This document shows positions 1,926 to 7,135 of a DNA stretch of 12,913 nt, one piece after another. The DNA is from Candidatus Hodarchaeota archaeon (GTDB lineage Archaea > Asgardarchaeota > Heimdallarchaeia > Hodarchaeales > Hodarchaeaceae). Numbering within the stretch: the first letter of the stretch is position 1; every line of letters starts with the position of its first letter. Location of the stretch: assembly GCA_029856365.1 (NCBI GenBank), contig JAHQWW010000109.1, positions 1-12,913 of the forward strand, written 5' to 3'. The notes under the pieces were generated by a model. The model was not told where the DNA came from, ran no database searches, and saw nothing but the letters and a program-made list of their open reading frames with translations. The position numbers were made by a program, and so were the translations under genes.

Positions 1926-2835
1926 TTACATTGTATAATTAATTATTGTTTGTATCATTCGACAAGCTGAGTACTCAGGAGTAGATGAATAAGATGAGCA
2001 ATTTTTACATTTATACACTTTTTCAACTTGTGTTTTAATCGATTTTTCTCTTTGAATTGATGAAACTATGTTGTAAAGGATATGGGGATCTTTTTTATCC
2101 ATTTTAATTAGGAAAGGGGCAATTTCAGAACGTAGGGATCTATGAGTAAAAGCACATTGGATTTTCAAAATAGGTAATTGGTGAATTTTAGAATTATTAC
2201 GGATTGTCTTTTCAGAAATTTCCGACAGAGGTTTAATTCTCAATAGCAATGATTTTCTATCAGCTGGTTTATACTCAATCTTGTCACGATAATTTTTCCA
2301 TAGATTGCCTCGAATTATATTGAGAAGTATTGTTTCCGCCTCATCTTCTAGAGTATTTCCCATTGCAATAAAATCAGCTTTGATATCCAAAGCCAAGCTC
2401 ATCATGCCATGACGGCGTAATACGCCACAAATAGCACACGGTGTAAATCCTAATCCCCGTTTATTTGATTCTTGAACCAAACTAGGTAGAGAGTAATCGA
2501 GATAATCGAGAATGAGATTTCTGAATAAAATTTATATCAGGATAATTCTGTTCAAGTTGCTTAATGACCTTTTTTCTAGCCAACTGCACTTCAGGTATCT
2601 CTTCTTCAAGGATAATAGCAGCTAACCTAGTTATTCTGAGTTTTTGCTGATATTTATGGAGAACATGAAGCATTGTGGTGCTATCTTTACTCCCTGATAA
2701 TGCAATAACAATAGGGTGGCCTCGGACACATCTTGGAATCTGGTTTAGAATTCTTTTCTCAAACTTTCGAGAGAAGCAAAAGTATTGAGGGGATTTTAAT
2801 TTGCCAAGTAAACCACAGCTACACTGATAACTCAT
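1926..2835 (-). pseudogene. ttuA: TtuA/Ncs6/TtcA-family PP-loop tRNA 2-thiolation protein, split by a frameshift near 2500
   Basis: The 5' ORF (2482-2835) has the PP-loop ALSGSKDS (canonical SGGKDS). The 3' ORF (1926-2480) has PCAICGVLRR, GNTLEDEAETILLNIIRG (canonical GHNLDDxAxT), RIKPL and a C-terminal CKNC. The halves are collinear and offset by 1 nt. Confidence 0.8.
2494..2511. repeat. 9-bp tandem repeat (TAATCGAGA x2) at the ttuA frameshift
   Basis: taatcgaga at 2494-2502 and 2503-2511. Confidence 0.9.
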
Positions 2836-2837
2836 CT

Positions 2838-2843
2838 AAAAAA
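2838..2843 (-). terminator. Oligo-T (T6) archaeal-type terminator after the sRNA candidate
   Basis: aaaaaa at 2838-2843 on + reads TTTTTT on -, 5 nt after box D. Confidence 0.4.
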
Positions 2844-2920
2844 GGAGGTCAGTTGCCAGTTCTCATCATTTCCCTATTAATAATAACAAGGATCGGTCGG
2901 TAAAACCTTCGTCATGCCAC
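2838..2920 (-). ncRNA. Candidate box C/D guide sRNA
   Basis: Minus strand: box C ATGACGA (2915-2909); 12-nt guide AGGTTTTACCGA; D' CCGA (2896-2893); 9-bp hairpin TCCTTGTTA-TTAT-TAATAGGGA (2892-2871); C' ATGATGA (2869-2863); 10-nt guide GAACTGGCAA; D CTGA (2852-2849); short GG/CC terminal pairing; T6 run. Confidence 0.7.
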
Positions 2921-3092: not shown

Positions 3093-6000
3093 CTATGGAA
3101 TTTTATGACTAAGTTCTAAGATTTTGGCTTTTTTCTCTAGCCTTCTCGCCTCACTATCATTCCCTAAATCATTCATACATTCAAACCAGATTTGATATAT
3201 CCTGGGATCTGATGGGCTGATTTGTTGGGCCTTTTTTAAAATTTGAATGGTTTTTTCAGGTTCTCTCTGATCTAAGAACATTAATGCAATTGCTAGTATA
3301 CTATTTAATTCTAAAGGATTAATGGTAATAACTTTCTCAAACATTTGCTTTGCTTTAATGTAATCCTCCATTTGATTGTAAATAAACCCCAAGGCATGAT
3401 AAACCTCTGGAGATTGGGGATAATTCTCAATAATAGGGAGAAATATTTTTAAATTATCTTTAAGAAAAAAAGCTGCTTCTTTTCTCACATTTACATTTGG
3501 ATTAGACAGTAAATCGAGAATCTTCCTTGTAATTGGTGAATATCTCGTATACGATAAGTTAATCCTTGTATCCAATAGCTGCCAAACTTGATTGCGAACA
3601 AGTGGATTCTGATCCTCCATTTTGTTAATAATTTGATTGAAAATAGTTTCATACTTCAAGTCTTTAATGTTAATACATGATAATAAAAGAGAAATAGCTT
3701 TAGCACGAGTATCATCATATATACTATTGAGAGAGTCTGTGATGACTGATAATATTTTTGGATCCAATTCATTGGTTTTAAGTAAATTATTTTGAATGAT
3801 ATTCCAAGAAATGGTTCGTATTTTAAAGGAATTGTCGTTAATGGAAGTAATTATGGCTTCTTTAATCCTGTTAAATTGTAAAGCTGAAAGATCAACGCGT
3901 TTATCGATTTCTAACAATAAACGAATGCGAATTGATTCCTGCTGACGACGCATGAGGTTAACGATTTGTAAAGGTGTACTTAATCCGATATCACTTTTGA
4001 AAATTTCCATGAATCCAAATTTATCAATGCCCTGCTTGATTTGATTCAATATTCCCTCTTGAAACTTGATCTTTATTTCATCTAAGTGGGGATGATTGAT
4101 TTTTTGGATGAAATCAAATTTATTTTCAAGATTTAACCACTTTTCTAATCGTTTATCATCATTGGTACTATCAAAGAGAAACTCCTCTATATTAAACTCT
4201 AGAAGGTCTTTCTCTAGGCTTTCAAATAAAGCATCGATTGACTGAGAGGATGTTTGGGAAGAGTCTTTGCTTTTAACTATGGGGTCAGTTAATAGATTAA
4301 TAATTATTTTTTGGAAATCCATTTCTTCTAGTGTTTTTCCACTATCTTTAATAAGAAAATGTATTAGAAATGGAATGAGCATCTCTTGCACATCCCATTG
4401 TCCTTCTTCAATTAATTGGGAGATTATTTGTGGTTCAAGAAAATTAAACAACTTTTGACTCATGAAAACGCTTAAAATTCTCTTTTTTAACTCCCTAGAA
4501 ATATTCTGTTTAGAAAGTATCTGAATAAATTGATCTCGAAGAAGATCATTGTCATTTATTATATTATAATTCTGATAAGTTTCACAGACAAACACGGCTA
4601 TTTTAGAATCAAGGTCTTCAAGATTTTCGGAAAGTTGAGAGATATACGCTGAGGTATAAGAAAAAACTTCATTATACTTAGTTACCAATTCCCATGCACT
4701 AGAAAGCACATTGGAGTCTTTATCCTCCAAAAGGGATGTGAAACTCATGAGTACAATTTTCTGATTAGGCCTCCAAAATTCAATGTCTTCATGTAAAAAT
4801 TCACAAGCATCAAATCGCACTTCTGGATTAGGATGACTAAATAATGTGATCAATTCAGAAATAAAGGTCTGATGATGGGTATCTGATAGTTGTGTTTTCT
4901 GTAACATCAACCAAGTCTTTTCCCGCACATTACGGTTTCTGTCACTAAGTAATTTAATAAGACAGTTAAAAATAGTTGGAAAATGTTTATCGTAATAAGG
5001 ATTATTTAAGAAACTGAGAAGGTTCTTTAGGGCCACATCACGAACCAACCATTTTGGATCTTCTAAAAGCCAGACGATTTTCTTAAACATATCCTCCTTC
5101 CTCTCCTTAAATGCATTGAATCGTTTAGATATAATATTACAAGCGGTTCTCCTGACTTGTTCATGTAAATCAGTTGTTAGATAGCTGATTTTTATCAGTA
5201 CGTTGTTGAATTTGACTTTATCTAAATCTAAATTTTGATTTAGTGATGTAGCAGCACTTTCTCTCACCTCCCAATTAGGGTCATCAAGGGCCGCCATTAG
5301 ACTTTCCAAAATAATTTTATTTCTCTGTTCCTTTAAGGATTGTAGAACTGGTAGTGTTTCACAGATATTCTTTCTCACACGCCATTCTGGATGCCAAAAT
5401 AGGCCAATAACCTTATCCCAGGTTCTTTGATCGTCTAAAAAACCATGTGTAACCATACTCTTTAGAGCGATTTTCTGAACACGCCAAGATGGATCAGATA
5501 ACCTACATTCCAAAATTTTCCCGATATTATTTCTATATTGATCAAAATTTAATATTTGATTCAATATTTCACATGTTAATCTACGAACTTCACGATTCTC
5601 ATCGTTAGATAATATTGAAAAAACATCAATTACTTGTTGAGAAAAAAAATCTGGATTATTCCAGAAAATTATGCAAATAGCTTTCTTCACGTCACTGCCC
5701 TGATTAACTACGGTATCCAGAATCCCAGTTAAAACTTCAGGGAATTTTTCACAAAGATCTTTTAAGATAAAAATGAGAAATCCTTGCGCATAACTTGCAT
5801 TGCTAGTTAAAATTTTTATTAATGTATCAGTCCTAGATTCAATGAAAGGTAATAAAAAAAATAATTTTGTGCAACGAAACCAGAAATCCTGTTTTGTTTC
5901 CTTTTGACTAAATACTTCAGTCAGTAATTCAATAAGATCCTCTTTAGACTCTGAAGAATATTCAATGAAGAAGCTCAGAATTTCTTCAGCCTTATTTCGA

Positions 6001-6155
6001 ATATAATGATTTTCATGATTTAATAAATTAAAAACTTTATTTATAATTTCTTTATCTGCTAAAAGAGATTCATTAACGATACAGAAATCAAGCGCTCTTA
6101 ATTGCTTGTCAAAGGATTCATTTGTCAATCCTGTTAAAATCGTCTCTAATTCCAA
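3093..6155 (-). CDS. Large HEAT-repeat alpha-solenoid protein with about 3 C-terminal TPRs (1020 aa)
   Basis: Recurring HEAT signatures at about 39-aa spacing: LSNDENREVRR, LSDPSWRVQK, WHPEWRVRK, LDDPNWEVRE, DLHEQVRR, LEDPKWLVRD, LSDRNRNVRE, HPNPEVRF, EDQNPLVRN, LSNPNVNVRK. The C-terminus (about 3093-3415) is TPR-like (PEVYHALGFIYNQMEDYIKAKQMFEKVITINP). TTG start. Confidence 0.88.
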   Translation of the reverse strand: MELETILTGLTNESFDKQLRALDFCIVNESLLADKEIINKVFNLLNHENHYIRNKAEEILSFFIEYSSESKEDLIELLTEVFSQKETKQDFWFRCTKLFFLLPFIESRTDTLIKILTSNASYAQGFLIFILKDLCEKFPEVLTGILDTVVNQGSDVKKAICIIFWNNPDFFSQQVIDVFSILSNDENREVRRLTCEILNQILNFDQYRNNIGKILECRLSDPSWRVQKIALKSMVTHGFLDDQRTWDKVIGLFWHPEWRVRKNICETLPVLQSLKEQRNKIILESLMAALDDPNWEVRESAATSLNQNLDLDKVKFNNVLIKISYLTTDLHEQVRRTACNIISKRFNAFKERKEDMFKKIVWLLEDPKWLVRDVALKNLLSFLNNPYYDKHFPTIFNCLIKLLSDRNRNVREKTWLMLQKTQLSDTHHQTFISELITLFSHPNPEVRFDACEFLHEDIEFWRPNQKIVLMSFTSLLEDKDSNVLSSAWELVTKYNEVFSYTSAYISQLSENLEDLDSKIAVFVCETYQNYNIINDNDLLRDQFIQILSKQNISRELKKRILSVFMSQKLFNFLEPQIISQLIEEGQWDVQEMLIPFLIHFLIKDSGKTLEEMDFQKIIINLLTDPIVKSKDSSQTSSQSIDALFESLEKDLLEFNIEEFLFDSTNDDKRLEKWLNLENKFDFIQKINHPHLDEIKIKFQEGILNQIKQGIDKFGFMEIFKSDIGLSTPLQIVNLMRRQQESIRIRLLLEIDKRVDLSALQFNRIKEAIITSINDNSFKIRTISWNIIQNNLLKTNELDPKILSVITDSLNSIYDDTRAKAISLLLSCINIKDLKYETIFNQIINKMEDQNPLVRNQVWQLLDTRINLSYTRYSPITRKILDLLSNPNVNVRKEAAFFLKDNLKIFLPIIENYPQSPEVYHALGFIYNQMEDYIKAKQMFEKVITINPLELNSILAIALMFLDQREPEKTIQILKKAQQISPSDPRIYQIWFECMNDLGNDSEARRLEKKAKILELSHKIP

Positions 6156-6205
6156 TATCCTTAATTCCTTTACTTTTGTCGAATATTAAATGAAGAAATT
6201 CTTTC

Positions 6206-7135
6206 TTATTTAAATAAACTAATTTGATTAGATATGGAAATTATTTGATCGTAAATTGTAGATGTTTCTTCTTGAAGCAATTTTTCCGTCTCATTTGAAA
6301 TTAGGATCAGTGTTGCTAATCCATTTTCTAAAAAATCGGCAAAACATATTTGATCTATAACTTCAGTAGAAAAAAACCTTTTATGGTTTCCTCCATTATT
6401 AGTTAAACGTTGAACAGATGATTCAAATAATTTCTTTATTTGGATTGAAGATAATTTGGGTGGATTATCTTTATTTTCATTTACATATAATAAAATACCC
6501 TCCTTTGTCATAATCTGGACATGATTGACTATATTGGGAAGACTTTGAATGAATTCATCTGATATTGAGCATAAATCAGCTTCAATGTCCAAGATTTCAG
6601 CAAAAATTTTTCCAATGACCATATAAATTGACTCAGAAAATACTGATGTTTTGTGAAACTGTAAATCTTTTGAAATTTCTGAACAAAAGTAACTCGTGAT
6701 ATATTCAAAGACATTATCAATTAATCTTTCAGGGAGAAGATCCATTTTATGGAGAAAAATGTGAACATTTGCCTTCGGACTGAATTGGTCGAGTTTTTCT
6801 AATGAGAGTTCTAGATAGTACTTCGCTCGAGAAAGGTCTACTACTTGAAGAGGCTCCAGAACGAAAATAAACACATCAACATCACTAAAAACAAACTCTG
6901 AAAGATCTCCTGTAAAACGATCCAAAAAACGCGTCTGTCCACCTAAATCAAATATATTTAATTCCGTACCACAAAGCATCTTTCTTTTTCTTTGATAATT
7001 AATTGTAGCGTCATATTTTCCCCCGAGTTGAGGAATTGTACCCTCAATAACACTGCTAATAATGGTAGACTTTCCTGACTCTGCTAAACCTAGAAAAACG
7101 ATCTTTTTACTTGGGATTTGGTGTTGAGAAGACAT
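6206..7135 (-). CDS. Gtr1/RagA-like small GTPase with a C-terminal roadblock/longin-like domain
   Basis: G1 GLAESGKS, G2 ATINY, G3 DLGGQ, G4 HKMD and G5 TSVF. HKMD and TS[IV] are typical of Rag/Gtr GTPases. The roughly 125-aa tail has a roadblock-like pattern (VNHVQIMTKEGILLY). Confidence 0.85.
   Translation of the reverse strand: MSSQHQIPSKKIVFLGLAESGKSTIISSVIEGTIPQLGGKYDATINYQRKRKMLCGTELNIFDLGGQTRFLDRFTGDLSEFVFSDVDVFIFVLEPLQVVDLSRAKYYLELSLEKLDQFSPKANVHIFLHKMDLLPERLIDNVFEYITSYFCSEISKDLQFHKTSVFSESIYMVIGKIFAEILDIEADLCSISDEFIQSLPNIVNHVQIMTKEGILLYVNENKDNPPKLSSIQIKKLFESSVQRLTNNGGNHKRFFSTEVIDQICFADFLENGLATLILISNETEKLLQEETSTIYDQIISISNQISLFK

Follow-up and report, generated by a model that had tools for sequence, protein, structure and literature searches.

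What is the small element on the minus strand at about positions 2921-2838 of the window, and, if it is an RNA gene, what would its product act upon? The window, i.e., the whole stretch of DNA that was analyzed, is 12,913 nt long and makes up one whole contig of a Hodarchaeales MAG of 204 contigs (35% G+C, 83.6% complete). The original prediction had been that the locus is an unannotated box C/D guide sRNA, and this identification is confirmed by its anatomy, conservation and covariation. We consider it very likely that the sequence read on the minus strand is a genuine stand-alone box C/D guide sRNA gene, with a D' guide directed at Um531 of 16S rRNA and a short D arm that acts as a helper, and we hold the assignment to the class of box C/D sRNAs with more confidence still than this reading as a whole.

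Anatomy of the sRNA gene

The four boxes of the gene lie on the minus strand in the right order with spacers of 12 and 10 nt (Table 1), and order, spacer lengths and coordinates had all been predicted as such; the prediction had left the strand unnamed. The TATA-like box upstream and the T6 run downstream that had also been proposed are both present and recur in most close homologs, the TATA box as (A/T)TTAAATA(A/G) at an equal distance in most of the closest same-genus homologs; a second family has a TATA-like A/T tract at about -30. The T6 run is likely an archaeal oligo-T stop, and the ATG of the downstream gene (2835, minus strand) lies 2 nt past it. Over both strands of the 4.24-Mb genome there are two matches to a strict four-box pattern, vs none in a reversed-sequence control, and a looser, target-filtered scan gives five matches in the genome, again vs none in the reversed control. 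The fold of the whole molecule is unexceptional (z = -0.46), as is usual for guides with open spacers. A pairing between the D' and D guides in the minimum-energy fold (GGUUUU with AGAACU) is lost in GUAC lineages, and we read it as chance for that reason.

Table 1. Features of the sRNA gene and other loci discussed in the text. Positions without a prefix are those of the window; prefixes give the contig, or the genome and contig.
Feature	Position	Strand	Remarks
TATA box TTAAATAA	2948-2941	minus	about 27 nt before the terminal stem (first paired G)
Terminal stem, 5' half, GG	2918-2917	minus	pairs with CC at 2848-2847
Terminal K-turn, 3-nt bulge	C2916, A2915, U2914	minus	precedes tandem G-A
Box C, AUGACGA	2915-2909	minus	
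D' guide AGGUUUUACCGA, 12 nt	2908-2897	minus	core is GGUUUUACCG
Box D', CCGA	2896-2893	minus	CUGA in most relatives
D'-C' linker, 23 nt	2892-2870	minus	between box D' and box C'
Linker stem, 9 bp, two G-U	2892-2884 / 2879-2871	minus	loop of 4 nt at 2883-2880
First bulge nucleotide of the predicted internal C'/D' K-turn	A2870	minus	
Box C', AUGAUGA	2869-2863	minus	
D spacer GAACUGGCAA, 10 nt	2862-2853	minus	
Box D, CUGA	2852-2849	minus	
3' tail: CC, UCC, T6	CC 2848-2847; T6 2843-2838	minus	CC is the 3' half of the terminal stem
Other candidate C/D sRNA	C190:281	plus	36-nt hairpin linker; no rRNA target found
Other candidate C/D sRNA	C36:28279	minus	36-nt hairpin linker; guides match both strands of 16S helix 34 (9 nt; 10 Watson-Crick + 1 G-U)
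Other candidate C/D sRNA	C81:42442	minus	14-nt hairpin linker; D' guide 10/10 to 23S CGGGGAUAAC
Other candidate C/D sRNA	C81:30655	minus	12-nt unfolded linker; D guide matches a 10-nt stretch of 23S
Stand-alone 23S 3' piece	G000:C184:257-566	minus	this genome
Stand-alone 23S 3' pieces	G010:C12:515019-515329; G007:C8:27759-28068 and 46367-46669; G001:C45:1819-2129		

Conservation and covariation

BLAST detected a homolog in nine of 21 same-genus genomes, and R1, a covariance model built from ten copies (the window copy and the nine BLAST homologs), found the RNA in 19 of those 21 and, in a second Heimdall family, in 14 of 31 genomes; five other families that were searched with R1 yielded no copy. 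The RNA is also carried by nine public contigs (Candidatus Hodarchaeota, Hodarchaeum mangrovi, Heimdallarchaeota). Throughout the 30 aligned copies the core of the D' guide is invariant (30/30) and the boxes are kept, and this core stays fixed while linker and flanks diverge among homologs. Boxes D' and C' are conserved across the genus, and box C reads RUGAYGA in all same-genus copies but a degenerate one in G019 (L116:591-667, G019:C65). The latter, which still precedes the ncsA-like gene, is probably a copy in decay: box C and the D' guide remain, whereas box C', box D and the D spacer between them are gone.

Covariation in relatives had been put forward as a check by the original prediction, and both helices show it. 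The two pairs of the terminal stem each change on both sides among 30 homologs (GC, AU, UA and GU; 89.7% of cells paired), and all eight modeled pairs of the hairpin do the same in the 30-sequence alignment. Over these pairs 87.8% of cells are paired, vs 61.8% in shuffles and 25-46% with the partners slid. Fitting of the alignment to the model favors the structure, but independent folds of each linker agree with it.

The D'-C' hairpin and the internal K-turn

Archaeal C'/D' motifs form an internal K-turn or a K-loop, depending on the presence of stem I (PMC8413462), and textbook archaeal guides are about 50 nt long with a K-loop at C'/D' (PMC6009581; PMC7994747). Which of the two does the window RNA have? 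Its linker hairpin folds at -8.9 kcal/mol (z = -6.5 to -7.4 vs shuffles), and because the stem adjoins D' on one side and is separated from C' by a single nucleotide on the other, it is followed by a bulge A-A-U and then tandem G-A, which is canonical K-turn geometry. Judged from its sequence, the hairpin is stem I of an internal K-turn, and C'/D' is a true K-turn and not a K-loop. The proposal that the hairpin converts the K-loop into an internal K-turn is thereby supported by fold and covariation, but the accompanying statement that this places the RNA "closer to eukaryotic snoRNAs" was overstated, because an internal K-turn with stem I is a known archaeal form (PMC8413462) and the L7Ae of this organism is archaeal-type. 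The typical archaeal K-loop is absent from C'/D' of the sRNA; this does not exclude membership in the class, since the K-turn is listed as the archaeal alternative (PMC8413462). The hairpin recurs among the candidate guides of this genome, three others having hairpin linkers and a fourth an unfolded linker of 12 nt, and it lengthens from the second family, in which linkers span 8-14 nt with a stem of 2-4 bp, to this genus, in which they span 19-36 nt (8-36 nt overall).

The core proteins fibrillarin, Nop5 and L7Ae are all encoded in the organism, the first two side by side (C118:1367-2023 and C118:2220-2897, respectively) and L7Ae (125 aa) on contig C48 (L123:1426-1803). The match of this L7Ae to the solved archaeal protein of A. 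fulgidus has an E value of 1.8e-39, vs 3.5e-21 for human 15.5K, and on this comparison it is clearly of the archaeal type. A Snu13-like L7Ae unable to bind K-loops is, given such a protein, unsupported as the cause of the hairpin. An extra pairing contributed by the hairpin loop, as in yeast snR70, was also considered and rejected because the loops are not conserved. In loop 9 of L7Ae, which contacts stem I of the K-turn, the sequence is NLGVRTA vs GIEVPCA in A. fulgidus, so that it has glycine in place of the glutamate, and an additional arginine; we read this loop as keeping the archaeal V and A positions, by the names of the Snu13 mutants in PMC8413462.

The D' guide and U531 of 16S rRNA

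What would the D' guide pair with? As this MAG has no 16S gene and has 23S only as its last ~250 nt, the target was read from the 16S of relatives, in which the guide pairs 10/10 with CGGUAAAACC of the 530 loop (E. coli 528-537), on the 3' side of helix 18. This stretch occurs once per 16S, in the 530-loop context GGUGCCAGCCGCCGCGGUAAAACCAGC; all four 16S sequences from the genus have it unchanged, as do nine of the ten taken from other families of the class, and G034, the tenth, departs from it by one base. When guides were shuffled, 27 of 5000 found a perfect 10-mer site in 16S plus 23S. By the +5 rule, the fifth guide nucleotide from D' faces U531 (E. coli numbering), and the D' guide very probably directs 2'-O-methylation of this nucleotide (predicted Um531). 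The first target that had been proposed for the RNA was UCGG[Um]AAAACCU; it is the 10-nt core of that string that was found in the 16S of relatives and is now assigned to the 530 loop, with the methylated U as Um531.

The E. coli numbering was taken from published anchors, a BLAST search of E. coli with the helix 18 region having given no match. Archaeal G507 corresponds to E. coli G530 (PMC4644070), as does yeast G577 (PMC4896748), and U531 is therefore yeast U578. The latter is known as Um578 (snR77) in yeast, and is equivalent to Um627 (HBII-135/SNORD65) in humans, Um580 (snoR77Y) in Arabidopsis and Um571 in Dictyostelium (PMC8817022; PMC11542601). Helix 18 is a known hot spot of methylation in archaea, with predicted sites at A532 and A535 (E. 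coli numbering; PMC4644070), and U531 (archaeal U508) does not figure among the sites that Dennis 2015 (PMC4644070) predicted from guides in seven archaea.

The D spacer as a probable helper arm

Is the second arm of the RNA also a guide? All that is conserved family-wide in the D spacer is CUGGCA (GGCAC in one genus), its flanks being variable and its length 10-12 nt. This hexamer is antisense to UGCCAG of 16S (E. coli 516-521), which lies on the 5' strand of helix 18, 6 nt upstream of the D' target. The complements of the spacer variants are GUGCCAG, which occurs once in 16S plus 23S, or GGUGCC, and the pairing is 6 nt long here and 7 in relatives. Summed over 18 spacer variants, the 5' strand of helix 18 is the single best of 5115 windows of 16S and 23S, a test that, because the variants are related, rests on essentially one conserved hexamer; the chance that such a hexamer falls beside the main target is roughly 1 in 100 to 1 in 200. 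The +5 nucleotide of the D arm varies by lineage (C519 here, C518 or G517 elsewhere), and this shift, together with a drift in spacer length through 12, 11 and 10 nt, makes the arm ill-suited to a conserved methylation site. In yeast snoRNAs, methylation is helped by "extra base-pairing" beside the target (PMC3116282), which the D arm resembles. Most likely this arm takes hold of helix 18 and opens it, as a helper or chaperone, with perhaps a weak second methylation directed at C519 as well.

Genomic setting

The RNA lies close in front of a gene for a PP-loop protein (305 aa; tRNA-thiolation group NcsA/TtuA/TtcA) in 17 of 20 genomes of the genus, with 10-20 nt between its end and the start of that gene; in the other three, and in the second family, its location is different. 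A scan of the locus for bacterial-type promoters and terminators found none, as expected in an archaeon. The ncsA/ttuA-like gene (1926-2835, minus strand) is a single ORF of 305 aa in G009 and G011. The window version is split into ORFs of 117 aa (2482-2835) and 184 aa (1926-2480), which is a frameshift or an assembly error, and the window lacks 10 nt at the start of this gene relative to the relatives. Adjoining the sRNA locus, a gene for a RagA/Gtr1-type GTPase (309 aa) lies directly upstream of one for a 1020-aa HEAT/TPR repeat protein (3093-7135, minus strand); both neighbors are in keeping with an Asgard genome.

Alternative readings of the locus

If the D spacer truly guides a second site, the RNA would be a full double guide, and its second target could be UUGCCAGUUC in a missing RNA, C519 of 16S, or helix 34. 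We regard this as unlikely. Box D and box C' are canonical and the spacer GAACUGGCAA is near-identical in the 11 closest species (the same in eight, with one position different in each of the other three), yet the second target that the original prediction had derived from it, UUGC[Cm]AGUUC (UUGCCAGUUC), could not be upheld. Most of these MAGs are without rRNA operons; of the rRNAs searched, neither the 16S of G007 nor the 23S of G001 (full) and G004 (3' half) contains a perfect match to this target, or a near-perfect one. Nor does it match any of the 12 to 14 tRNAs (an incomplete set) recovered by Aragorn, in which the only near-match of the D spacer, to tRNA-Pro CGG, was rejected on account of a mismatch, a G-U pair and a +5 position in the anticodon stem. 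Within this genome, all 14 exact matches outside the sRNA gene are inside long ORFs, and no intergenic match found with G-U pairs allowed is stable-RNA-like. The exact matches in G015, G011 and G008 have only one coding stretch, read antisense, as a common context, and a comparison of contexts across the whole genomes of five relatives gave no conserved non-coding site. By raw pairing, the best rRNA site for the D spacer is UCGUCAGUUC in helix 34, where same-genus 16S offers eight contiguous pairs including one G-U and the methylated C of the candidate UCGU[C]AGUUC would be, by our own count, about E. coli C1066; this site was also rejected, as it is at chance level (76 of 400 shuffled guides equal it) and is broken in the GUACUGGCAA (GUAC) lineages.

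Could the element instead be a K-turn leader, or part of an sRNA-mRNA co-transcript, that controls the ncsA/ttuA-like gene via L7Ae or sRNP assembly? A milder form of this idea would have the sRNA processed out of the leader of the ncsA/ttuA-like mRNA. The same gene follows in the 17 genomes mentioned even where the identity of its protein has fallen to 41-44%, the interval between sRNA and ATG shows neither a promoter of its own nor a Shine-Dalgarno sequence, binding of L7Ae to mRNAs has been published (PMC5539422), and so has the processing of C/D sRNAs from mRNA ends (Tripp 2017, as cited in PMC7994747). We nevertheless think control of this gene very doubtful, because the RNA, with invariant boxes and D' guide, is also present in G005, G001, G016 and ten genomes of the second family that lack such a gene downstream, because a conserved TATA box of its own precedes it at the proper spacing and an oligo-T stop follows it, and because a regulatory leader would have no need of 10 invariant nucleotides antisense to the 530 loop. 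The RNA may be co-transcribed with the downstream gene; this would be compatible with guide function, but it does not replace that function and is not the reason for the conservation of the RNA. That box-like motifs fell into this order by chance in an AT-rich intergenic region, and that no functional RNA is made, might have been suspected given the shortness of the boxes, the G+C content of the genome and the unexceptional fold of the whole molecule. The comparative data have already refuted this reading, whose probability is practically nil: 33 other genomes, from two families, have the RNA with invariant boxes and guide and with a covarying hairpin and terminal stem, the reversed genome yields no four-box match, and the 10-nt core of the guide pairs perfectly with the decoding center.

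Relation to known box C/D RNAs

The RNA has what is found in archaeal box C/D sRNAs, namely a terminal C/D K-turn, the D'-C' order, spacers of 10-12 nt and an rRNA antisense of at least about 9 nt, and in kind it is ordinary, one RNA among many of a large class that is well understood. No Rfam family matched at the gathering score. The Infernal search that the original prediction had put forward as a check returned weak matches only; these 11 sub-threshold matches are all to C/D snoRNA families on the minus strand (best 8-18 bits). With the archaeal C/D sRNAs in the literature (Omer 2000; PMC4644070; PMC6009581; PMC7994747) the RNA shares the box order, RUGAUGA/CUGA boxes, the short terminal stem, the +5 rule, the presence of genes for L7Ae, Nop5 and fibrillarin in the genome and a target in the decoding center of rRNA, whereas its predicted length is about 75-80 nt rather than about 50 nt, its spacers are unequal (12 and 10 nt) with one full guide only, and no Rfam family covers it. 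Additionally, it has a 9-bp hairpin K-turn where the guides of thermophile models have a K-loop of 3-9 nt.

The crenarchaeal RNAs Sac sR115, Pca sR28, Tte sR114 and Iho sR21 (PMC4644070) are alike in that their D' and D arms grip both strands of helix 18, the D' guide on the 3' side of the 530 loop and the D guide on the 5' strand. These double guides, which we compared by description only, have predicted sites at A535 and G515 (PMC4644070), whereas those of the window RNA are U531 and at best C519, with a D arm of 6-7 bp. Similarly, in yeast snR70, snR75 and snR76 a stem closes C'/D' and a short second complementarity helps the main guide (PMC3116282). However, the extra pairing of snR70 is in the loop of the stem, and here it is in the regular position of the D spacer and the loop is not conserved; the protein that binds C'/D' would also be an archaeal-type L7Ae, unlike that of these yeast snoRNAs.

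The family comprising snR77, SNORD65 (HBII-135), snoR77Y and Dictyostelium CD21 (Rfam clan CL00057; PMC8817022) has as its methylated nucleotide the U beside the decoding G, which is also the one predicted here. Since the predicted nucleotide is the same, the antisense element of the window RNA is similar to that of snR77/SNORD65, and since the target is shared and invariant, a shared guide sequence is forced. Against the models of the clan, the window copy gave no match at E values up to 10 and the G061 homolog none either, and the G028 homolog scored 22 bits to snoR77Y, for which the threshold is 52.

Proposed mode of action and evolutionary implications

For transcription, particle assembly, U531 methylation and the helper role we infer the following course from sequence. 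An sRNA of about 75-80 nt would be transcribed from its own TATA promoter, and its transcript would stop at, or read through, the T6 run that abuts the ncsA/ttuA-like gene. L7Ae would bind two K-turns, the terminal one at C/D and the internal one at C'/D' with the hairpin as stem I, and a Nop5 dimer and two fibrillarins would complete the particle. The D' guide would then pair with 16S 528-537, and fibrillarin would 2'-O-methylate U531 beside the decoding nucleotide G530. On the opposite strand of helix 18 the D spacer would pair over 6 nt with 516-521 as a helper, maybe with weak methylation of C519.

The literature that we searched gave no description of C/D guide RNAs from Asgard archaea. 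The interest of the RNA lies mainly in a site that is common with eukaryotes and is found in their closest archaeal relatives. The U531 equivalent is methylated in yeast, plants, amoebae and humans and is not guide-predicted in seven other archaea (PMC4644070), and we predict that 16S U531, the neighbor of G530, is methylated in the archaea most closely related to eukaryotes. If this is confirmed, at least one decoding-center methylation of eukaryotes predates eukaryogenesis. Is the helix 18 sRNA of Heimdall archaea then the direct archaeal ancestor of the pan-eukaryotic snR77/SNORD65/snoR77Y family? We think this improbable. Were it true, the Hodarchaeales would show first steps towards snoRNA architecture, in that the D'-C' linker stem lengthened from 8-14 to 19-36 nt, one full guide was kept and the second arm was reduced to "extra base-pairing". 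The RNA family also forms a natural series of C'/D' motifs, from near K-loop to long-stem K-turn, that could be used to probe what the archaeal particle tolerates.

Observations on rRNA genes

In several of these genomes, pieces of the 3' end of 23S (model positions 2721-2973) stand alone, apart from other rRNA and some of them in the middle of long contigs (Table 1); a cmscan at gathering scores gave no match at three of the loci. G001 has a full 23S elsewhere besides its stand-alone 3' piece. These pieces could be a split 3' domain of 23S, an extra copy or a scoring artefact. The 16S gene of G007 (G007:C9:1695-3919) spans 2225 nt vs the 1478 positions of the model, and the insertion of about 750 nt that it contains possibly represents one or more introns.
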